Below, in pieces: positions 1-12,916 of a DNA stretch of 20,913 nucleotides; position 1 is the stretch's first letter; each line of letters opens with the position of its first letter. Under the pieces are notes generated by a model that saw nothing but the letters and a program-made list of their open reading frames with translations, did not search any database and was not told the DNA's origin. Position numbers and translations under genes: made by a program. The stretch is from Promethearchaeota archaeon (GTDB taxonomy: Archaea > Asgardarchaeota > Lokiarchaeia > Sigyniarchaeales > SOKP01). The DNA lies in NCBI GenBank assembly GCA_016930515.1, contig JAFGGO010000054.1, positions 1-20,913 on the forward strand. The letters run 5' to 3'.

Positions 1-421
1 CCCGATGGAACCAGAAATTCTAAAGATCGGACGAAAGGGTGAAGCAGGATGCGAGTTCATTCAAACGCAAGTCGTTTACGATCTCGATAGAACTATTGAA
101 TTCTTAACAGCGATCCAAAAATATAAAGTACCCGTGTTACTTGGCATCTTTCCCATGAAGAGCTACGCCATAGCTAAGGGATTTGACATGTTCGTGCCTG
201 GTGTTGATGTGCCAAAGGAAATCCTGGCGAAATGGAAGAGCGTAAAAACCGATATTACCGATAAGAAGCAACAACAAGAAGCTTACGACCAAATGAATTA
301 CAAATTTTTCAAGCCATTCATATCGGAACTTAAATCAAAAAAACTATTAGCTGGGATCCATTGCATGGCCGTTCATTATCCAAGAATCTTTCCAAAACTA
401 ATGGAGGTTATAAAAAGTTAG
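1..421 (+). CDS. metF: Methylenetetrahydrofolate reductase (MetF/MTHFR), C-terminal part; gene probably starts upstream of the window
   Basis: K-x2-AG-CEFIQTQVVYD, PVLLGIFP, VPGVDVP and GIHCM match the MTHFR TIM-barrel C-terminal motifs (K..AGAdFiiTQ..fD; gihl). The frame is open to the window edge, so the ATG at 5 is probably internal. Confidence 0.85.
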   Translation, partial: PMEPEILKIGRKGEAGCEFIQTQVVYDLDRTIEFLTAIQKYKVPVLLGIFPMKSYAIAKGFDMFVPGVDVPKEILAKWKSVKTDITDKKQQQEAYDQMNYKFFKPFISELKSKKLLAGIHCMAVHYPRIFPKLMEVIKS

Positions 422-511: not shown

Positions 512-1570
512 ATGAAACTCATACTATCAAAAAAGCAGTCTATATTTCTTAAATTAATCTTAATTTCAATATTGTTAATCATCTCTATCTTTTTGCTCCT
601 GTACCTTCAACTCGTTTTTAATCTAAATATTATCTTTTCTCATTTTTTTTACTTTCCAATAATAATTACATGCATTTGGTGGAAATATAAGGGCATGATT
701 CTGTCCTGTTTATTGTGCTTATTGCTCGTTTTTGTTCCTATTGGAGTTAGCATTAATTTCTTTTATTCTGTATTGATCGAAAATGCTCTAAGAAGTATTG
801 CAATGCTATCAATAGGTTTTGTCGTTTCGTTTCTAAGCAACCGCCTTTCAAGAGAGGAAGAGGTTCACAGGGCTTACGACGAGTTGTTTTTTTTTCGAGC
901 ATTATTAATTCACGATATGAACAATATCCTTCAAGGAATACGTTCTGCATCCGAATTGTATTTTCTATATAAGGATGACTCGAAGATAGAAGGAAATATC
1001 GACGAGTTGTTAGAAATAATCTTCAACCAATGTAATAAAGGATTTGAATTGATTTCTAATGTCAGAAAATTATCTGATTTGGAAATTCAAAAGCAAAAAT
1101 TAGAAACGGTAGAAGTGAAAACATGCATTCAAGACGCAATCAAATTCGTAAAAAATAATTATATTTCAAGAAATTTAGAAATCTCCGTTGAGCCAAGCAA
1201 TCGAGAGTTCCAAGTGAGAGCAAACGAGTTACTTTTTGATGTATTTACGAATATTCTGACTAATGCCGTGAAATACAACGATAATCCGATCGTAAAGGTA
1301 CTCGTAAAAATTCATAGGGTGTTGAGGAAAGATTCGTGGTTTGTTCGATTAGAATTTATCGATAATGGTATAGGAATTAGTGATAACATTAAGAAAATCA
1401 TTTTTATGAACGGAAAAAGTGAAGCAAAGCGTAGTAGAGGCATGGGATTCGGAATGTCTTTAGTAAAGAAGATAATAAGGTCATACAATGGGAAGATATG
1501 GATTGAAGACAATGTCGAAGGAGATTATTCAAAAGGCACAAATGTTAACTTGTTAATTCCCGAAAGTTGA
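512..1570 (+). CDS. Membrane-bound sensor histidine kinase (about 4 N-terminal TM helices, HisKA, HATPase_c)
   Basis: Hydrophobic N-terminal ~110 aa; H-box HDMNNILQGI, N-box NILTNAVKY, G1 DNGIGI, G2 GMGFGMSLVKKII. No response regulator in the window. Confidence 0.92.
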   Translation: MKLILSKKQSIFLKLILISILLIISIFLLLYLQLVFNLNIIFSHFFYFPIIITCIWWKYKGMILSCLLCLLLVFVPIGVSINFFYSVLIENALRSIAMLSIGFVVSFLSNRLSREEEVHRAYDELFFFRALLIHDMNNILQGIRSASELYFLYKDDSKIEGNIDELLEIIFNQCNKGFELISNVRKLSDLEIQKQKLETVEVKTCIQDAIKFVKNNYISRNLEISVEPSNREFQVRANELLFDVFTNILTNAVKYNDNPIVKVLVKIHRVLRKDSWFVRLEFIDNGIGISDNIKKIIFMNGKSEAKRSRGMGFGMSLVKKIIRSYNGKIWIEDNVEGDYSKGTNVNLLIPES

Positions 1571-4508: not shown

Positions 4509-5507
4509 TTATTTATTTAATAATTTTTTGGCAACACTTAAAGCGTAATTATAGTCAAATATCTTTAAACCATTTGTGTTTGCTGCTTCTTTTAAGATTT
4601 CAGCTTCTGAATTTGATTTGAGCCTGCCAAGCGCCAAGGCACCTATTCCAAAAATATTTGGATAGATTTCTTCATTGTAGTGTTTTGGTTTGATCCCATC
4701 AATACCATAGGGAGGAACCAAGTTGATATCAACGACTATTTTTTTACCTTCTAACTTCATCATCGCCTTTTCAGACAATATCTCAACACCTGCAGCAGCC
4801 AAAGACCAAAGTATATCTACATCTTTAGATAATTCCACTCTATCTTCCATACTTGGAGCAAAAACACCTCTAATTTTTGTAGCCTCATTTCCTGCTTCTG
4901 CGGTAAGTTCTTCTGCCAAATTATTAACAAATTCTTCGTTAGATTTTTCCCATGTTTCAATTAAAAACACATTGCACCCTATTTTTGCGCCTAAAATCGC
5001 TGCTATTCTCGCTACAGGACCTGCACCGAAAATTACTACCTTTTTTCCTTTTAAATCTTTCATTCCATGTAGTTTATCTGCAACATCTATCGTCATTGCA
5101 ACTACAGCCGATGCTGTCGTGTGAGAACCCCTCGGATCAATGATTACTGGACATTCAAAAGGAGGTACCAAGGATTTTACGACTTCTTTCGCAATCTTTT
5201 CTCCTTCTTTCACATCCGATCCTCCTATGAAAAAGGTTGTTGGTGCCCTGGGTTTTCGCGAGAAAGTAGCGTCTTGAACGAGCTTGGCAACTTGATCGGC
5301 GGTCATCTTACTAATGGGTATGACGATATCGAAACCTGCATCGTATGCCATATTGATGTCAAATGGGGAAGCGTTGTCGTCAGTATCGAAAAAGTAACAA
5401 ATCTTATCCGATAAATCCTTTTTCTTTATCACAATTGGCGTGAGCTCAATAATGGATTTTCGTCCTAAAATAGAGCGTACATCTTTTTCTATATCCTGAT
5501 CTTGCAT
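4509..5507 (-). CDS. mtdB: NAD(P)-dependent methylene-tetrahydromethanopterin dehydrogenase, MtdB/MtdA-like
   Basis: SPFDINMAYDAGFD, VQDATFSR, FIGG, VPPF...DPRGSHTTASAVVA match the MtdA/MtdB N-terminal domain. Rossmann VVIFGAGPVA; DINLVPPYGIDGI; GIGALALG. Strong AAGGAGG SD supports the ~33-aa N-terminal extension. Confidence 0.88.
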   Translation of the reverse strand: MQDQDIEKDVRSILGRKSIIELTPIVIKKKDLSDKICYFFDTDDNASPFDINMAYDAGFDIVIPISKMTADQVAKLVQDATFSRKPRAPTTFFIGGSDVKEGEKIAKEVVKSLVPPFECPVIIDPRGSHTTASAVVAMTIDVADKLHGMKDLKGKKVVIFGAGPVARIAAILGAKIGCNVFLIETWEKSNEEFVNNLAEELTAEAGNEATKIRGVFAPSMEDRVELSKDVDILWSLAAAGVEILSEKAMMKLEGKKIVVDINLVPPYGIDGIKPKHYNEEIYPNIFGIGALALGRLKSNSEAEILKEAANTNGLKIFDYNYALSVAKKLLNK

Positions 5508-5525
5508 AGTTTTATTCCTCCTTTT

Positions 5526-6263
5526 TTAAGAATTCTTTTCCTTTACGGTTATTTCCACATCTTTTTCTAATTCTTCGATTTCTTCGGTTTTTATCGTGCG
5601 CTTAATTTTTATCTTTTCGATATCGATACCCAAGTCGCTGCATAATTTTTCCATTCCATTGAAATGTCTTAAATCGCAAATGAATATTCCCTTTAACTTC
5701 GTCCCATCGACATCTTTAGCCATGTTTATGATATTCATCATCATCCACGCTTCTCTCACATTATATCGCACTTCATCTTCTTGGGCGGCATAGTCTCTTT
5801 CCAAGTATTCCTTCCAAATGACTAATTTTTGGAACCATTCATCTTCTTCGGGAATTTTTCCTTGTTTTGCGATTTCTTCCCTAATGCGTTTCTCTAACCT
5901 GACGACCGCCTTTCTATGTTCATCTAAAGCTGCAGACAAGTAATCTCGTGCGTTATCATCAATATCCACGCGAGAGAATGGTAATCCTTTAAGCTTGAAA
6001 AGTTCTTCCAATGGGTCGACTTGGTTTTGGGATTCGTCCCAATTCGTAGGTTTCTCTTCTGCACCAAAATGGGGCTTGTATTTTTCAACAAGATTATCAA
6101 TCACATCGAGGTATTCCTTGGAAATCAAATGCAAGTTCCAAACCAGGTCTTCTTTTATCTTCTTAGGAGCTTCAAACCACCAATCAACGGGAAACTCGCT
6201 TTCGACCATAATCAACTTTAAGTGCTTCTTCTTTAAAGGCTTTAATTCTAATACTTTTGGCAT
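5526..6263 (-). CDS. Hypothetical protein, probable TraB/Tiki/EreA/ChaN-like alpha/beta fold with helical-hairpin insert
   Basis: HLISKEYLDVIDNLVEKYKPHFGAEE, GLPFSRVD, REAWMMMNI and FICDLRHFNGM parallel the TraB motifs H.S....V...I....PD.V.VE, GIPv..iD, RD.yM..nL and vvG.gH..Gi. AAGGAGG SD upstream. Confidence 0.6.
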   Translation of the reverse strand: MPKVLELKPLKKKHLKLIMVESEFPVDWWFEAPKKIKEDLVWNLHLISKEYLDVIDNLVEKYKPHFGAEEKPTNWDESQNQVDPLEELFKLKGLPFSRVDIDDNARDYLSAALDEHRKAVVRLEKRIREEIAKQGKIPEEDEWFQKLVIWKEYLERDYAAQEDEVRYNVREAWMMMNIINMAKDVDGTKLKGIFICDLRHFNGMEKLCSDLGIDIEKIKIKRTIKTEEIEELEKDVEITVKEKNS

Positions 6264-6285
6264 TTTTATTCATCCTCCTTTTATG

Positions 6286-6900
6286 TTAAAATTCAATATT
6301 TATTATATTGTGTTTTTTCGTATATTGAACAACCCTTACATTTAATTCTCTAAGTTGCTCTGTTACTTCTGCACATATATCTTCACATATATCCTCTTGA
6401 ACTAAATGTAGAAACGCGACCTCTTCCGAACTAATAGTTTTTACTGCGTCGAGCATTTTTTTCACTATCCATTGGGGTCGTAATTTCAGCGTGATGTAAT
6501 TCTCCTTATCTTGAATTTCATCCCTTAGTACATCAATCCAATTTTTAAGACTTTCTGCTTTTAACGATTCTTTATCGCTCATTGATTCGAATTCTTCATA
6601 CAATTCGTTTAACAACTGTTCTTTCTCCACGATCTCTTGATACAGATATCCCATTGCGTATTCTGGAATATCTACCTGAAAATACATTATGCTTAAATCG
6701 TTCAAGGCTTTAGCAAGCTCGGATTCCTTGAATTCTTTTAAATCGACATTGAAATCAATTGTAACAAAGTCAATCTTTTTCTTTTCCAAGAATTTCTTGA
6801 GTTTAGCGATATCAAAATAGTGAAAATCATCTTTATTTTTCTTGGCGACATATGCGCAAATATGTTTTTTATGTATTGGTTTTAATTCCAGTACTTCCAT
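6286..6900 (-). CDS. Paralog of the 5526..6263 protein, apparently lacking its His/Glu residues
   Basis: Same N-terminus (VLELKP..KKH), (F/Y)..VDI...A..YL helical insert and R..W. Start moved from 6933 to ATG 6900 because a GGAGGTG SD lies at 6909-6915. Confidence 0.7.
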   Translation of the reverse strand: MEVLELKPIHKKHICAYVAKKNKDDFHYFDIAKLKKFLEKKKIDFVTIDFNVDLKEFKESELAKALNDLSIMYFQVDIPEYAMGYLYQEIVEKEQLLNELYEEFESMSDKESLKAESLKNWIDVLRDEIQDKENYITLKLRPQWIVKKMLDAVKTISSEEVAFLHLVQEDICEDICAEVTEQLRELNVRVVQYTKKHNIINIEF

Positions 6901-7098
6901 TTTTAATACACCTCCAAACTCGATTCCATTCAAGAATCTTATTCCTAAGTTACAAACGCTTTACTCGAAATTTAAAAAATTTGATAAGAAAATTTTTAAT
7001 CATTATGACAAAGAAATTTATCAAAATCCTTAATATAGTAATTTTATTTTTTACGAATATGGTCTTAAACACCAATAGATGCATAGAACAGCCTTTCA

Positions 7099-7151
7099 TA
7101 TATAAATCTCTATCGCGAACATTGTTCGATAGTATGGAATATATTTATATA
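7099..7151. promoter_or_regulatory. Back-to-back archaeal TATA boxes with a central palindrome (divergent promoter/operator)
   Basis: TTTATATA on the minus strand (7099-7106) and on the plus strand (7144-7151). CGAACA-T-TGTTCG at 7116-7128 is extended by CTAT/ATAG to 7110-7132. Confidence 0.5.
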
Positions 7152-7264: not shown

Positions 7265-9811
7265 ATGGATATCTATTCCGTATTGTCTCACGAATTCCGG
7301 AGAAAAATTTTATTGCTTCTTGAAAAAGAAGGATATGTCTTATATACCGATTTAATGGATAAATTGGGATTGGATCAAACAGGTCAATTGAACTTCCACT
7401 TGAGGAAACTTGGTTCTCTGATTAATAAAAACAAGAAATATTATTTTCTCACGGAAGATGGAAAGCGCATCTTAAAAATCTTGAATATCAATAAGCGAAT
7501 ATTATCAGGCGAAGAAGTGGATTATCTCAATTCCAAGGGAAGCGAAATTAATCGCGTTGGGGTGATTATTTGTAATTGTAATACAGAAATTTCTAATATG
7601 ATTGATATTATCTCTTTAGAAAAACACGTTTCTAAGTTAAGAAATGTTGTATCGGTTAAGATATTCGAAAATCTTTGTCAAGAAAAAAACTTAGAAAGAA
7701 TATCGAACTGGGTAAGAGAAAATTTTCTTAATAAGGTAGTTATAGCCGCCTGTTCTCCTAAAACACACCAACATATTTTTGAGCGAATTTTTAATGGAAT
7801 AATAGATCACACCAACATTGAAATTGCCAATATACGGGAACAATGCTGTTGGGTACATCACACGTCAATTGAACATAAGGGAGATCCTTTCATCGTATTG
7901 CAAAAAGCACAATTATTAATTGAAGCAGCAATTGAAAGAATATTGCTTCAAAAGGAAATAAAGATCAAACGAGTGGAAATCGAAAAGTCTTGTGCGATAT
8001 TAGGCGGGGGAATTGCAGGAATGACTGTTGCGCTAGATTTAGCAAGAGCAGGCATCAAGGTTTATCTAATTGAAAAAAGTCCTACCTTGGGGGGAATGGT
8101 TGCTAGGTGGCATAGAGTTCACGGAATAGGAGACTGTTCGATTTGTTTCATCTCCGAACTGGTAGGGGAAATTGTAAAAGAAAAAAACATTCAAATTCTT
8201 ACTAACACGGAAATAGAGGGTGTATCTGGAGAAGTAGGAAATTTTACATTAAATTTAATCAAGAAACCTCGATTTGTTGACGAAAAGAAATGTACGGGAT
8301 GTAAACAATGCATTGATGTGTGCGGAGTAAGAAAGCCAAACCAATACGAGTTCAATTTGACCAAGAGAAAGGTCATTTACTTCCCATTCCAAAATTGCTA
8401 TCCATATGTTCCGCTTATTGAGGAAGAAGACCTTAACGATTGTTTGAATTGTAGAATTTGTGAGCGAGCATGCATGAATAAGGCTATAAATCTTAACGAA
8501 AAACCAGAAAAATTACAGATTAAAGTTGGCGCAAAAGTAGTAGCTGTTGGAGCTGATATCTTTAAAGATTTAAAGGATTATAATTACGATCCCAATAGAG
8601 ATATTATTTCTTCTGCAGAATTCGAGCGAATGCTATCTTCGGACGGAATTACGGAAGGAAAAATCCTTAAGTTATCCGATTTAAAACCACCCGATACCAT
8701 TTCAATCATCCAAAACATAGGATCTACCCGAAACCATCAAGAACTTATAAATAATATCGTTCAAAAATATATTGGGTGTATTAAAGTAAAAAATCCTAAA
8801 TGTATTGTAAATATTTTTAGTAAAACTAGGCCACAAAACGAAGACATATCCCTATTTAAATCAACAGATCCAAGATTTCATTATGTTGAAGATATAAAAA
8901 TTAACAGAAAAAAGGATCAAAATATTATTATATCGAATTCTATCGAATATCAGAGTGATTTGATAATTTTAAATGTCGATTTGATTCCAAACAAGGACTT
9001 AAGGCTCTTGAGAAAAACCATGGATTTTACTTTAAACGATTCGGGGTTTATGAGCGAAGATACCTTAGCTTCGGGAATTTATGGTGCTGGTACCATTCTT
9101 GGACCGCTTAATTACTATGAAACGGTAAATTCAGCACATAAAGTTGCACTCAATATTATTTCTCTTTTTTCAAACGATTACATACTTGCGGAATTCACCG
9201 GAATTGAAATTAATGAGAATGCGTGTGGTTTATGCTCTCTTTGCGTAAAGGCATGTCCTTATAACGCCCTTTCGATAGAAAATGAAAAACTCTCAATTGA
9301 TAAATTTAAATGTAAAGGATGTGGGACTTGCGTGAGCGTATGTCCTACTAACGCAATTGACATGAACATCGATACTACGGACAAAATCCTAAAATCGATC
9401 GAAATTTTATCTAAATTCAATAAAAAACCAAAAATTTTAGCCTTTTGTTGTCGATCCTGCGGTTACGCAGCTGCGGACGATGCAGGCTTGAAAAAATTAT
9501 ACTATCATCCAAATGTATTCGTAGTTCGAGTTCCTTGTACTGGTCGAGTCGACGCAAATTTCATATTAAAAGCTTTAGAATGTGGATTTGATGGTGTTTT
9601 GATAGTTGGATGTAGAAAAGATGCTTGTAGATATATAGACGGTACTCAAAAAGTTCAAAATAAAATTCATATCCTGAAAAAAGTCTTAGGTCCGAGGTTG
9701 GGTCGTAAGATAATACTTAAAAATTTAAACGCCGTAGAGGGAAATAAATTTTCAGAGATATGCAATAAATTTTATAATATACTAAAAGTGGAAAGCGAAT
9801 ATGAAGCTTAA
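7265..9811 (+). CDS. Fusion: ArsR-like winged HTH + HdrA-like flavoprotein (degenerate TrxR-domain Fe-S site) + ferredoxin domains + MvhD
   Basis: aa1-~75 LSHEFRRKILLLL...LNFHLRKL...YFLTEDGKR (wHTH). HdrA N-domain RVGVIICNC, AACSPKTH, NIREQCCWVH; FAD motif GGGIAG. Ferredoxin motifs CTGCKQCIDVC, CLNCRICERAC, CGLCSLCVKACP, CKGCGTCVSVCP. MvhD motifs FCCRSCGYAAAD, RVPCTGRV, GCRKDACRY. Confidence 0.9.
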   Translation: MDIYSVLSHEFRRKILLLLEKEGYVLYTDLMDKLGLDQTGQLNFHLRKLGSLINKNKKYYFLTEDGKRILKILNINKRILSGEEVDYLNSKGSEINRVGVIICNCNTEISNMIDIISLEKHVSKLRNVVSVKIFENLCQEKNLERISNWVRENFLNKVVIAACSPKTHQHIFERIFNGIIDHTNIEIANIREQCCWVHHTSIEHKGDPFIVLQKAQLLIEAAIERILLQKEIKIKRVEIEKSCAILGGGIAGMTVALDLARAGIKVYLIEKSPTLGGMVARWHRVHGIGDCSICFISELVGEIVKEKNIQILTNTEIEGVSGEVGNFTLNLIKKPRFVDEKKCTGCKQCIDVCGVRKPNQYEFNLTKRKVIYFPFQNCYPYVPLIEEEDLNDCLNCRICERACMNKAINLNEKPEKLQIKVGAKVVAVGADIFKDLKDYNYDPNRDIISSAEFERMLSSDGITEGKILKLSDLKPPDTISIIQNIGSTRNHQELINNIVQKYIGCIKVKNPKCIVNIFSKTRPQNEDISLFKSTDPRFHYVEDIKINRKKDQNIIISNSIEYQSDLIILNVDLIPNKDLRLLRKTMDFTLNDSGFMSEDTLASGIYGAGTILGPLNYYETVNSAHKVALNIISLFSNDYILAEFTGIEINENACGLCSLCVKACPYNALSIENEKLSIDKFKCKGCGTCVSVCPTNAIDMNIDTTDKILKSIEILSKFNKKPKILAFCCRSCGYAAADDAGLKKLYYHPNVFVVRVPCTGRVDANFILKALECGFDGVLIVGCRKDACRYIDGTQKVQNKIHILKKVLGPRLGRKIILKNLNAVEGNKFSEICNKFYNILKVESEYEA

Positions 9812-10562
9812 GTTTCTCATTACCTCACTAACATCTTGTAGTGGTTGCGTATCATCTTTGATTTCGCTCGATTTTTTCTCACAATTTTTGGAAAAGACGG
9901 AATTATGCTATTTCCCTTTTCTGGAAGATAATCAATTGATTGACGATCAAGATTACGATATCGCTTTAATTGAGGGATGCGTTTCAACAGATTCACAGAT
10001 TGAGTTCTTGAAGAAAATCAGAAAAAACTCAAAAAAGATAATTGCACTGGGTACATGTGCGGCATTTGGAGGAATTTTGAGTTTATCAAAGGAGCGATTT
10101 GCTATTCCTTTACAAGACGTGGTAGAGATAAATGGAATCATCCCTGGATGTCCACCACCTACTAAATTATTTGGAAATTGCTTGATTAAACTTCTCGAAC
10201 GAAAAGAAATAGAGCTCCCTAAAAAAAATTTGTGTGATGGTTGTCCAAATAAAACGGATTTTATTCTGAGTAAGGAAACCATAATTAACAAAATAATACC
10301 CGATAATAAAGACTTATTCGAGGAGGGAGAAAATTGTTTCTTGAAAAAAGGCGTATTATGTCTCGGTCCAATCACGAGACAAGGGTGTGATTACGAATGT
10401 ATAAAGGCAGGAATGCCATGTGAAGGGTGTATGGGTCCCGTTTCTAAAGATATCACATCCAATATCATTAATTTCCTGAGTCTTGCTAATGTTTCCAAGG
10501 ATTTAAAAAAGTACAAGGGATTGTATTATCGATTTTCTAAACCAAAAATTTGGAGATCTTGA
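9801..10562 (+). CDS. mvhG: [NiFe]-hydrogenase small subunit, group 3 (MvhG-like)
   Basis: SCSGC, EG, GTCAAFGG, PGCPP, CDGC, CFLKKGVLCLGPITRQGCDYEC, PCEGCMGP. Overlaps the upstream fusion gene by 11 nt. Confidence 0.9.
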   Translation: MKLKFLITSLTSCSGCVSSLISLDFFSQFLEKTELCYFPFLEDNQLIDDQDYDIALIEGCVSTDSQIEFLKKIRKNSKKIIALGTCAAFGGILSLSKERFAIPLQDVVEINGIIPGCPPPTKLFGNCLIKLLERKEIELPKKNLCDGCPNKTDFILSKETIINKIIPDNKDLFEEGENCFLKKGVLCLGPITRQGCDYECIKAGMPCEGCMGPVSKDITSNIINFLSLANVSKDLKKYKGLYYRFSKPKIWRS

Positions 10563-10563
10563 C

Positions 10564-11865
10564 ATGATTAAAACTGTAGAGTTATGCACCAGAATTGAAG
10601 GACACGGAGAAATAAGCGTTTATACAAGGGACGATCAATTGCTCCAAGCAGAATTCAAGCTTCCAATTTATAGGGGATTCGAGACCATGTTAAAAGGAAA
10701 GAAAATATTAGATGTGCCTCGTATCGTCTCTAGAATATGTGGGCTTTGTCACGCATCTCAAACTATCGTGAGTTGTAAGGTCATAGAAAACATGTACAAT
10801 ATCAAACCTACTCAACAAGCAATAGTACTTCGACGAATTTTAATGACTGCTGAAATGCTTAAATCCCACACAACCCATTTTTTCTTCCATTCCTTTCCCG
10901 ATTTATTGAAATTGTTCAAAATATCTAATAAAATATTAGATTTAAATCAATTAATCGCTTACGATCGCATTCTTACTAAGAATATATTTGAACTCATCAA
11001 AATTGGAGATGATATAAACAAGATGCTCGGAAGTAGGTCGGTGCATCTCGTTAATGTACTCCCCGGAGGGATTATATTTAAACCAAGCACTCATTTTTCA
11101 AGAAATTTTCAAACTCTTCTTTCGAAAGGAATCGGCGCTCTCAAGGAAATTCTCGAATTTTTTATCAAGCAATTTTCGAACCTAGACCCCCCTGCTTCTT
11201 TTTCGATCCCAAAAGTTAAGAATTTAGCTTTAAATAATAAAAAAATCTATGATAGATATGAAGGTATCATGACAATAAAAGAGAGTCGCACAAAATACGA
11301 GGATTTTCCAATCGAGAACTTCCTCGAACATTTTGAAAGGGATGTTGGTTTGAGGGGGATAAATACCCTTAGTGAATCGAAAACAGCAATTTTAGTAGGT
11401 CCTATTGCCCGTAGAAATATAGTGGAAAACTACGGCGTTCAGGAATGTAATAGTTACCTTGACCTTTTTGGAAAGGAATGGAAGAAAAACCTTTTATTTT
11501 CGAATTACTTGCGTTTAATTGAGATGTATTCTGAAATGAAAGCAATCAACCAGTATCTTGAAACAACAAGATTGGAATCGAACTTACCCTTACCTGATTT
11601 TCGTTCCATCAAGAATTTCGAAGGTATCTCTGCCGTGGAAGCACCTAGAGGTAGTCTATTACATTATTATAAGATCAACGAAAGAAATGTCGTTGAGGAC
11701 GCTAAATTCTTCATTGCAACGGAGTTTAACCTTCCCATCATCAATAAAATGATCACCAAGTACGCTCGCAGCATATACGAGACGAAAGACATTTCAGAAG
11801 TGAAAAAGGAAATCCAACCAATGATAAGAGCTTTTGACCCTTGCATCTCGTGTGCCACCCATTAA
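10564..11865 (+). CDS. mvhA: [NiFe]-hydrogenase large subunit, group 3c-like (MvhA-like), with no C-terminal extension
   Basis: TRIEGH, RGFE, L1 RICGLCHASQ, EAPRGSLLHYY, L2 DPCISCATH followed directly by stop. Starts 1 nt after mvhG. Confidence 0.9.
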   Translation: MIKTVELCTRIEGHGEISVYTRDDQLLQAEFKLPIYRGFETMLKGKKILDVPRIVSRICGLCHASQTIVSCKVIENMYNIKPTQQAIVLRRILMTAEMLKSHTTHFFFHSFPDLLKLFKISNKILDLNQLIAYDRILTKNIFELIKIGDDINKMLGSRSVHLVNVLPGGIIFKPSTHFSRNFQTLLSKGIGALKEILEFFIKQFSNLDPPASFSIPKVKNLALNNKKIYDRYEGIMTIKESRTKYEDFPIENFLEHFERDVGLRGINTLSESKTAILVGPIARRNIVENYGVQECNSYLDLFGKEWKKNLLFSNYLRLIEMYSEMKAINQYLETTRLESNLPLPDFRSIKNFEGISAVEAPRGSLLHYYKINERNVVEDAKFFIATEFNLPIINKMITKYARSIYETKDISEVKKEIQPMIRAFDPCISCATH

Positions 11866-11887: not shown

Positions 11888-12916
11888 ATGAGCGGAAAAG
11901 ATTCAGAAAGCAGGAAATACGATTTTAAGTACGAGCAAATCGAACCAGAACAGCTATGCGAAGTGTTCTTGTTTTATTTCGACGAATCCTTAGGTCAAAT
12001 CTTGCTTTTAAAAAGTCCTGAGGAAAGACACACGGACGAGGAGACAATGCGCATACTTAAAGTTCATTCGATCTGGTTTCTGGACATAAGCGATAAAACT
12101 TCGCTTGATCGCGTCGATTTAGAATATGGCATGAAGATGTATTTCGCAAAGAAGTTTTTAGTTCCCTCCTACCGAGAGAAAAGAAGAGCAGGATCAAAAG
12201 AATCTAAAAACGAAACGATCGTGCTCATTCTCGCCTTACCCATAGAAATGGACATTTTTGGTGCGGCATTGGTAAAGAGCACGACAGAAAAGATGATCAA
12301 GCACTTCAAACACCATTTCACACGCTTGATCGAAGCGAATATTGCGAGTTTAGACTTGATAAAAACGCCTAAAACAAGAGAATTGTTCGAGGAGGGGCAA
12401 CGAATAAAAAAGCGAATGAGCGCACTCATAAAAAACTCATGTTCTCAATATTTTAAATCAGTAATTCAAAAGACGGATACCTCCACTTTAAAGATCCAAA
12501 AAGCCATTTCGTACCTTTCCCTGCGTGGTGTCCCAATTGAACACATAACTAAAAAAGGGGATAAAGTAAGCTTTTCAAACATGAAATTGTTTGAAACTGA
12601 GCTAAAATCCTCTACAAATTCCGTTCAAAAAAGTGCTTTTAGCATTATGGATAAGTCTATCGTTGAAGAAACGCAGGAATTAGAAATCATAACGAAAAAT
12701 AATTCTCAAAACCACTACCATAACATCCATGTGAAGATCACTTCTTTAACGGAATTTTTTGAGCAACCAATACTTTTTAATACCATCGAGGATTGGTTAC
12801 CTGAAGAAGAATTGGTATTCAGCGTCCCTAAATCGATTGGAAATCAAGATATGATTTTTTGTTTATTGGATCAGAATCGAAAGGTCTTATTTCAGCAAAG
12901 GATCAAACCCAATTAA
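11888..12916 (+). CDS. Hypothetical protein with probable N-terminal longin/uDENN-like domain and C-terminal beta-rich domain
   Basis: VFLFYFDESLGQILLLKSP fits the longin/uDENN beta-hairpin pattern (h-h-FD...G.....P); later F.VPS...RRAG....TIVLILAL. Start taken as ATG 11888, since the TTG at 11834 overlaps mvhA. Confidence 0.5.
   Translation: MSGKDSESRKYDFKYEQIEPEQLCEVFLFYFDESLGQILLLKSPEERHTDEETMRILKVHSIWFLDISDKTSLDRVDLEYGMKMYFAKKFLVPSYREKRRAGSKESKNETIVLILALPIEMDIFGAALVKSTTEKMIKHFKHHFTRLIEANIASLDLIKTPKTRELFEEGQRIKKRMSALIKNSCSQYFKSVIQKTDTSTLKIQKAISYLSLRGVPIEHITKKGDKVSFSNMKLFETELKSSTNSVQKSAFSIMDKSIVEETQELEIITKNNSQNHYHNIHVKITSLTEFFEQPILFNTIEDWLPEEELVFSVPKSIGNQDMIFCLLDQNRKVLFQQRIKPN

Follow-up and report, generated by a model that had tools for sequence, protein, structure and literature searches.

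An Asgard group-3 [NiFe] hydrogenase with glutamine in its L1 motif and no C-terminal tail, encoded with a winged-helix HdrA fusion

The operon and its large subunit

A 20,913-nucleotide (nt) stretch of DNA from a Promethearchaeota archaeon (GTDB lineage Asgardarchaeota; Lokiarchaeia; Sigyniarchaeales; SOKP01), contig JAFGGO010000054.1 of assembly GCA_016930515.1, was analyzed at its full length and is called the window here. It carries an operon encoding a fusion of a winged helix-turn-helix (wHTH) domain with HdrA and MvhD, a hydrogenase small subunit and a [NiFe] hydrogenase large subunit, and it is this large subunit and its partners that are described below. The end of the fusion gene overlaps the small-subunit start by 11 nt, and the small-subunit stop lies 1 nt ahead of the large-subunit start. 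The features are as follows, with lengths in amino acids (aa).

7006–7023, no strand: palindrome TGACAAAGAAATTTATCA (TGAYAA-N6-TTRTCA), a candidate operator in the divergent promoter region, from a search for shared sites upstream of the operon
7265–7489, plus strand: ArsR-like wHTH, aa 1–75 of the fusion, recognition helix TGQLNFHLRKL (DUF7347, predicted model, Foldseek)
7265–9811, plus strand: wHTH-HdrA-MvhD fusion, 848 aa (DUF7347 at aa 2–71, HdrA2 model at aa 97–841, FlpD at aa 724–840)
8714–8752, plus strand: HdrA segment, aa 484–496, in which the four Cys of the [4Fe-4S] cluster of the thioredoxin-reductase domain (HA4) are all replaced (alignment)
9801–10562, plus strand: MvhG-like small subunit, 253 aa (PF01058, VhuG-like)
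10564–11865, plus strand: [NiFe] hydrogenase large subunit, 433 aa, a mature-length product (translation without internal stop; PF00374)
10732–10761, plus strand: L1 motif RICGLCHASQ, aa 57–66 (R57, C59, C62, Q66; translation, alignment)
10888–10890, plus strand: codon of His109, aligning with Phe of HoxC HFYLF and with Leu of HoxG and MvhA
11836–11865, plus strand: C-terminal DPCISCATH (D425, C427, C430, H433; 11836–11862) and the stop codon (11863–11865), giving a tail of 0 residues without a maturation peptide
11888–12916, plus strand: orf4, 342 aa, no Pfam family, often kept downstream of the large subunit

The original prediction, made from the DNA letters alone, had claimed an L1 motif of RICGLCHASQ and an end directly after DPCISCATH, and translation of the gene bore out both. 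Gln66 (codon 10759–10761) stands where His is usual. The Ni/Fe cysteines C59, C62, C427, and C430 are invariant in 30 members of the clade to which the protein belongs, and E12 of TRIEGHG, R362 of EAPRG (EAPRGSLLH), and H433 are likewise invariant within the clade. The Glu of the RxEGH motif functions in proton transfer and the Arg of PRGxxxH is part of the active site. Over the 30 sequences, which are 45–62% identical, 71 columns are invariant, every metal ligand among them. Judged from its sequence, the protein retains all residues needed for NiFe(CN)2CO binding and H2 splitting, and catalysis itself is predicted. At the position of His109, which we take to be the gas-channel gate (F110 in HoxC), the majority of the clade has Gln (consensus HFFFQSLPDL). 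Two further cysteines lie near the active site: Cys8 (10585–10587), which stands for Pro-Val ahead of TRIEGHG and is restricted to the subclade with Gln, and the conserved, clade-specific Cys71 (10774–10776) in SCK.

The large subunit scored 96.6 bits against PF00374 (Pfam cut-off 25.8). Its closest solved structure is MvhA (5odc_F, E 1.2e-48), which reads RICGICQVAH at the L1 position and has 25 residues beyond the terminal His. The NCBIfam models VhuA (139.8 bits, cut-off 800) and ShyA (140.2 bits) gave a tie, with both scores far below cut-off.

The large subunit was also compared with HoxC of Cupriavidus necator, encoded on pHG1 (L091:17976–19433). HoxC reads PRVCGICSVSQ at L1 and ends DPCMVCTVH-stop, confirming the earlier claim that this protein has Gln at the same position and no extension. 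In a joint alignment, Gln66 falls on HoxC Gln67. The likeness to the HoxBC/HupUV enzymes (group 2b) therefore consists of this Gln and the lack of a C-terminal extension, together with a non-Leu residue where HoxC HFYLF has Phe. A further likeness to the C. necator sensor is that the protein coexists with canonical hydrogenases in the same genome, here represented by the motif RICGICPIPH and a HycI-type protease.

That genome, which is 94% complete, encodes HypD, the HycI-type endopeptidase (35.8 bits) and about eleven HdrA paralogues; a search of it for group-4 (PF00346) and [FeFe] (PF02906) hydrogenases found neither. The RICGICPIPH motif occurs in two large-subunit N termini at contig ends (C74:1–270 and C150:1–270, minus strand). 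Over the first 90 residues the two barely differ, and a small-subunit-like gene of about 460 aa stands ahead of each. What follows of both genes is missing from the assembly, probably through collapse of the copies.

Distribution and descent of the L1 glutamine and the missing tail

A homologue search of 5.8 billion proteins returned 2011 relatives, of which the best 120 (45–62% identical) were analyzed. Wherever a source was named, these 120 came from Asgard metagenome genomes, with Loki-, Thor-, Odin-, Hod-, and Hermodarchaeota labels. Gln was present at the L1 position in 117 of the 118 readable sequences among them, and the C terminus was His in all 119 that could be read there. In addition, 80 loci were fetched from contigs, with one genome per species. 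All six clade members among these combined Gln with the absence of a tail, whereas the 74 non-clade group-3 loci, comprising methanogen Mvh/Vhc enzymes, Bathyarchaeia, and many bacterial group-3 enzymes, all had His, with tails of 13–39 aa bar one that was cut at a contig end.

A profile search was run over 1.84 billion cluster representatives, and the best 150 clusters were taken. Ten of these have Gln: nine belong to the clade, as members or as fragments of members, and the tenth is a 175-aa fragment whose placement is uncertain. In a 3b-like subclade, six representatives carry Tyr at this position (RICGICPVAY; P0179, P0183, P0237, P0241, P0267, and P0268), and all others have His. His is therefore not universal outside sensors either. 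Gln is nevertheless a rare feature and a fixed trait of an inner subclade of the Asgard lineage.

The tail presents a different picture. Among the same 150 clusters, 19 non-clade representatives also have a tail of 0 residues; seven of these were scanned, of which five were closest to the sulfhydrogenase (3b) models and two to VhuA, none of them reaching cut-off. Other 3b-like representatives mostly have tails of 4–10 residues, and the nearest neighbours of the Asgard clade in a 166-row tree (below) have tails of 0–6 residues. Groups 2b, 2d, 4c, 4e, and 4g are naturally tail-less and are matured by the normal Hyp machinery (PMC7294309). Because it is shared by the 19 non-clade representatives, by neighbours with short tails and by groups described as tail-less in the literature, the missing tail says little. 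It is not distinctive, and would reflect no more than a lineage whose tail was already short. The general statement that most group 3 enzymes carry an extension thus holds for the 3c/3d branch and fails for 3b-like enzymes, with tails mostly of 0–10 aa. Of the two features that had been called hallmarks of sensory hydrogenases, the Gln stands, at HoxC Q67, and the missing tail does not. For Asgard enzymes, neither the Gln nor the tail-less trait was found described in the open-access full texts searched, and neither was an HTH-HdrA fusion.

The 3b-like (sulfhydrogenase-type) large subunits resemble the window protein in their short or absent tails (0–10 aa) and in the equal ShyA and VhuA scores of the latter. 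They differ in having His at L1 (Tyr in the one subclade), in forming a separate clade (99% support), and in their other partner subunits.

Descent was studied using two trees, one of 72 large subunits (IQ-TREE, LG+C20 with posterior mean site frequencies, short search) and one of 166 (FastTree). Both recover the Asgard sequences as a single clade (100% support) that sits on a long stem within group 3, and the window protein itself is placed inside group 3 with 99–100% support. The clade sits beside a clade of methanogen Mvh/Vhu (3c) and HoxH (3d) enzymes with a support of 83 in the 72-row tree; this relation is unsettled in the 166-row tree. HoxC (2b) pairs with HoxG (1d) outside group 3, as outgroup. 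The clade is thus its own deep group-3 branch, outside group 2 and not within the methanogen Mvh enzymes, and the large subunit is the catalytic component of a group-3 [NiFe] hydrogenase that branches deeply and is specific to Asgard archaea. A placement within group 2 is contradicted by both trees, and since HoxC and the window protein have no such common descent, the Gln at L1 that they share is a convergence. The original prediction had called the protein an Mvh-lineage enzyme. This is right as regards group 3 and the Mvh-type partners (MvhG-like small subunit, MvhD, and HdrA), and wrong as regards the methanogen Mvh clade, outside which both trees put it; the enzyme is Mvh-like by its partners and a separate deep subgroup by descent.

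Within the Asgard clade, the L1 residue and the tail are distributed as follows.

L093 (family f21), basal: L1 His, tail 8 aa
L096 and L097 (f28), basal: L1 His, tail 8 aa, terminal His replaced
L100: L1 Gln, tail 11 aa
L094, L095, and L098: L1 Gln, tail 5–6 aa
L099, L105, and the core clade: L1 Gln, tail 0 aa
P0103 and P0121: L1 His (secondary), tail 0 aa

The Gln-bearing lineages form a single inner clade with 99% support. Two side observations concern the same sequences. The C-terminal His is absent in relatives near the clade base (L096 and L097, DPCISCSSV; P0149 and P0159, DPCISCLGA; P0222 and P0228, DPC.SCLA.). The orthologous large subunit at L104 (G163:C51:14847–16031) contains three in-frame TAA codons, and is either a pseudogene or a case of a recoded stop in that lineage.

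Among the 17 related loci whose upstream DNA could be read, 15 have the gene order wHTH(DUF7347)-HdrA-MvhD, small subunit, large subunit, and they span at least five families of the phylum. Both remaining loci are of the Gln type: L098 has a separate MvhD and L099 has no HdrA within 4.8 kb. The HTH-HdrA fusion also stands beside the basal, His-type large subunits with 8-aa tails (L093, L096, and L097), and the fusion is older than the Gln change. The distribution suggests that the fusion came first, followed by Gln and then by complete loss of the tail, with the loss of HA4 placed between the fusion and Gln. The co-occurrence of Gln and missing tail with HTH-fused HdrA, as raised with the original prediction, is accordingly real, as a nested and not an exclusive relation. 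Ordinary Asgard group-3 enzymes without an HTH partner did not show the combination of Gln and no tail: L101, L102, and L103 have His and tails of 20–25 residues, and the large subunits at C74 and C150 of the window's own genome, readable at the N terminus, also have His.

Occurrence was counted by eye in 400 genomes of the phylum, taking as a clade member any match with E below about 1e-90 or any fragment of at least 45% identity. Members were found in roughly two thirds of the family to which the window belongs (about 92 of 135 genomes) and in a few other families. The gene is missing from several 97–100% complete genomes of the same family and from single-contig genomes of the same order. 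The only sequencing data set listed as containing 7265–11865 is the probable source metagenome, and no RNA run was listed.

The HdrA fusion and the candidate operator

The fusion protein matched HdrA (8rvu_a) with E 2e-106, its MvhD part giving about 3e-23. The best NCBIfam model was that of HdrA2, the HdrA-MvhD protein of Methanosarcina acetivorans (NF040770), which has the same fusion order; the score of 561 bits falls far short of the cut-off, which is 1100. HdrA2, whose partner is HdrB2C2, carries no wHTH, and in the window protein the cluster that leads toward HdrBC is gone. The Cys at canonical HdrA positions 387, 399, 403, and 404 are all replaced. They are lost in 14 of 16 HTH-HdrA proteins and kept only in the basal L096 and L097. 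We take these four to be the HA4 ligands on the basis of the 5ODC numbering (C386/399/403/404), which matches the aligned positions 387/399/403/404. The other 28 Cys shared with canonical HdrA are invariant across the 16 orthologues; they belong to the N-terminal cluster, to the DCSxC pair, to the two ferredoxin domains and to MvhD. The window HdrA retains its flavin adenine dinucleotide (FAD) motifs, the N-terminal cluster, both ferredoxin domains, and the MvhD cluster.

In canonical complexes, HA4 carries the high-potential electron from FAD toward the heterodisulfide, with its exit to HdrBC (PMC12350162). Neither hdrB nor hdrC was found in the operon. Because HA4 is lost, the complex is predicted from its cysteines to be incapable of acting as a classical Mvh-Hdr bifurcating enzyme with HdrBC.

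The methanogen MvhAGD-HdrABC complexes (group 3c; PDB 5ODC, 8RVU, and 9SW2) gave the best sequence matches for all parts, and the order of cofactor motifs, a small subunit with three clusters and an MvhD linking hydrogenase to HdrA are common to both systems; the 12 invariant Cys of the small subunit are consistent with three iron–sulfur clusters. The differences are that in the window L1 has Gln and not His, the tail of 24–25 aa is missing, the large subunit is on a separate deep branch, and HdrA is fused to MvhD, begins with a wHTH, lacks HA4 and has no hdrB or hdrC beside it. Of the traits of group 3c, the association with MvhD and HdrA is present, while the branching, a VhuA score above cut-off, the path to HdrBC, the L1 His, and the extension are all absent.

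The N-terminal 75 residues that make up the wHTH have a mean column identity of 72% over 15 orthologues, the conserved elements being HxxRRKILxLL and the helix TGQLNFHLKKL. This domain matched DUF7347 with E 1.4e-12 and HTH_20 with E 7e-4, the latter below the Pfam cut-off. A predicted model with a confidence score (pLDDT) of 85 has the ArsR-type order alpha1-alpha2-alpha3-alphaR-beta-hairpin-alpha5. The top Foldseek matches were CadC, YodB, NolR-DNA, HlyU, and SqrR, with template modeling scores of 0.55–0.69 and E values of only 1e-3 to 2e-2; the model resembles ArsR- and MarR-type DNA-binding regulators. When the wHTH alone was searched against the sequences of solved structures, the only matches had E ≥ 0.25.

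Of 15 related loci, 12 contain the exact palindrome TGAYAA-N6-TTRTCA, and all but one of their 15 matches fall within the (FrhB-)HTH-hdrA promoter region, a placement kept across Asgard families. The sites include L001:1625, L004:4487, L085:3465, L088:3426, L100:2352, L104:2267, L093:2552, and L087:1365, with two each in L086 (2196 and 2364) and L003 (3216 and 3383). Two further genomes (G154 and G147) have the palindrome at the expected place. No match was present in 1.1 Mb of control loci. The 4-Mb genome of the window contains three matches, where shuffles give one to three. The two that lie outside the window are a tandem pair (C122:10331–10370), about 190 nt upstream of a canonical HdrA paralogue (C122:10539–12212). 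This paralogue keeps the HA4 cysteines and has three in-frame TGA codons where other HdrA proteins have Cys, and because of these codons it is probably a selenoprotein, as far as can be read from the gene. A GC-containing palindrome, CGAACATTGTTCG (7116–7128), had also been proposed as an operator; it was rejected, being present only in this window and absent even from the closest relative.

The divergent operon (4509–6900, minus strand) encodes two paralogous proteins without assigned function (parA and parB) and an Mtd-like methylene-tetrahydromethanopterin dehydrogenase (mtd). The parA-parB-mtd genes are in synteny with the HTH-hdrA operon in eight further loci, which belong to three families (L085, L001, L004, L006, L104, L093, L094, and L095). 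The palindrome lies 98–123 nt upstream of parA where these genes are present, and 186–208 nt upstream of the HdrA paralogue in loci where the latter is adjacent.

Other genes of the window and genome were noted. Relatives of orf4 with 41–53% identity follow the large subunit at L001:6548–7507, L006:9341–10321, and L088:8378–9340; a remnant is present in L085, and a 34%-identical paralogue is found in the same genome at C125:7838–8809. No histidine kinase is encoded in the operon or in the related loci. A histidine kinase gene (HisKA and HATPase_c; 512–1570, plus strand) lies 5.7 kb away beyond another operon, is not among the genes within 7 kb in four related loci, and nothing was seen to link it with the hydrogenase operon. 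The end of an MTHFR-like gene (2–421, plus strand) also lies at the window's left edge, likewise with no such link seen. A second DUF7347-like wHTH, 35% identical and apparently standalone, is encoded in the same genome (C7:11413–11616), and is an alternative candidate for the protein that binds the palindrome.

Sensor, enzyme or both

The interpretation of these data that we favour is that the complex is either a dedicated H2/redox sensor or an enzyme that also regulates in the manner of PutA, and we give this a probability of roughly one half. H2 would be oxidized at the NiFe site and the electrons would pass from the small subunit to the [2Fe-2S] cluster of MvhD and on to the HdrA flavin. 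In methanogen complexes the N-terminal domain of HdrA is mobile and gates access to FAD (PMC13518236), and in the window protein it is this domain that bears the wHTH. Without a route to heterodisulfide reductase, the redox state of the flavin and a mobile N-terminal domain could report the availability of H2 (or ferredoxin), and the state of HdrA would then set the binding of the ArsR-like wHTH to TGAYAA-N6-TTRTCA. In this way the wHTH would control its own operon, the divergent parA-parB-mtd operon, and the canonical HdrA paralogue. The Gln66, with the Gln or His at the presumed gas gate, may tune the active site as in group-2b sensors. It could be, more specifically, that the Gln-type hydrogenase serves as input to a one-component H2 sensor, in which it is connected via MvhD to an HdrA that lacks HA4 and binds DNA by its own wHTH, and H2 partial pressure is translated into transcription of one-carbon and Hdr genes. 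This narrower proposal is tentative, and somewhat more apt to be wrong than right.

The comparison with PutA extends to architecture and proposed logic only, that is, to an N-terminal DNA-binding domain on a flavoprotein encoded ahead of its own operon. In PutA, the FAD redox state switches the protein between repressor and enzyme. The folds are unrelated, with ribbon-helix-helix as against wHTH and proline dehydrogenase as against HdrA, and a link between redox state and DNA is only proposed for the window protein. The HoxBC/HupUV sensors differ in their output, which there is the histidine kinase HoxJ/HupT, where here a fused DNA-binding flavoprotein would serve; and the candidate regulon comprises hdrA, mtd, and the operon itself, not other hydrogenases as in the bacterial sensor.

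A signaling role is plausible on the grounds of the wHTH, the conserved candidate operator and the loss of HA4, and not on those of the Gln or the tail. The original prediction had held Gln and the missing tail to be independent support for signaling, and in that capacity they proved weak: tail loss is common in metabolic enzymes, and the Gln of the bacterial sensor is reported to be dispensable, as it ‘seems not to be involved in H2 sensing’ (PMC5665086). Both points count against a sensor, and so do several others. The two complete ferredoxin domains and the 28 invariant Cys suggest real electron flow to a partner. The genomes of relatives contain one to nine palindrome matches each, compared with zero to four for a reversed control pattern; at this background, far fewer than 1% of loci would be expected to show a match no more than 500 nt from any one gene. 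The distance from the palindrome to the hdrA start is variable (214–276 nt). Because the spacing to parA or to the HdrA paralogue is more constant than that to hdrA, another factor could bind the palindrome and other genes could be its targets. Finally, the palindrome was not found upstream of canonical hydrogenase, hyp or HycI-type protease genes, unlike what is seen in the regulon of a bacterial sensor.

The same observations lend themselves to an ordinary metabolic, cytosolic hydrogenase that interconverts H2 with ferredoxin and/or, through FrhB, with F420, for example in disposal of fermentation reductant as H2 or in feeding the Wood–Ljungdahl pathway; Gln66 and the missing tail would be quirks of the lineage, and the wHTH would at most autoregulate or be a structural add-on. 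This is a considerable possibility, albeit one that we would not expect to prevail. It is in keeping with the conservation of the catalytic residues and of all electron-transfer Cys bar those of HA4, with the tail-less state common to 3b-like enzymes, and with the FrhB gene that lies directly upstream in the same orientation in several loci (L086 and L087), which fits a metabolic F420- or ferredoxin-linked enzyme and is a further point against a sensor; L087 also has HdrD-like and GltD-like genes downstream. The [NiFe] hydrogenase of cultured Lokiarchaeia is abundant, and group-3c-type enzymes of Asgard cultures have been read as metabolic (PMC11216029), yet single-contig genomes of the same order, which may be those of the cultures, have no clade member, and this abundance was dropped as an argument against a sensor. 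A purely metabolic enzyme is left by the loss of HA4 with no known high-potential exit, and it does not explain the strictly conserved ArsR-like recognition helix and the matching rare palindrome. The gene is moreover accessory, being absent from several nearly complete genomes of its own family as counted above, and the genome holds other hydrogenases with the canonical motif.

It could also be that Gln66, Leu61, and Gln/His109 alter the gas channel and second coordination sphere so as to let the enzyme withstand O2 or sulfide, in the way proposed for the narrow channel of the bacterial sensor, with no regulation involved. The three substitutions do align with HoxC I62, Q67, and the Phe of HFYLF, which we take to be the positions discussed for the O2 insensitivity of the bacterial sensor. 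We regard this explanation as improbable, since it draws on the resemblance to HoxC alone: the window encodes only anaerobic functions unrelated to oxygen, the hosts are sediment anaerobes with Wood–Ljungdahl and Hdr genes, the small subunit with its 12 standard Cys shows no O2-protective features, and the known solution for tolerance does not consist in placing a polar Gln in a hydrophobic channel. Still further from what was observed, and very improbable, is a hydrogenase relic, decaying or already inactive, that has stopped binding the NiFe cofactor. The three in-frame TAA codons in the relative G163 (L104) are of the kind that decay would leave. Set against them are the 71 invariant columns with every metal ligand among the 30 sequences, an operon structure conserved across families, the presence of HypD in the genome, and the normal maturation of tail-less large subunits in other groups (PMC7294309).

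Genes of this clade are currently labeled generically or as F420- or NAD-reducing hydrogenases, and the operon would be read as MvhADG-HdrABC. That reading fails on at least one defining point, since a path to HdrBC is lacking. The bacterial H2 sensors have been described as the only [NiFe] hydrogenases in which the His of L1 is not conserved, and a second, unrelated lineage with Gln is a natural test of this residue. Exchange of H2 is central to current models of Asgard physiology and of the syntrophy behind eukaryotes. Joined to a DNA-binding-type flavoprotein and a conserved candidate operator, the clade is a candidate for an archaeal H2-responsive gene switch. If this is true, it would be a second, independent invention of hydrogenase-based H2 sensing, with the same active-site Gln as in the bacterial sensors.

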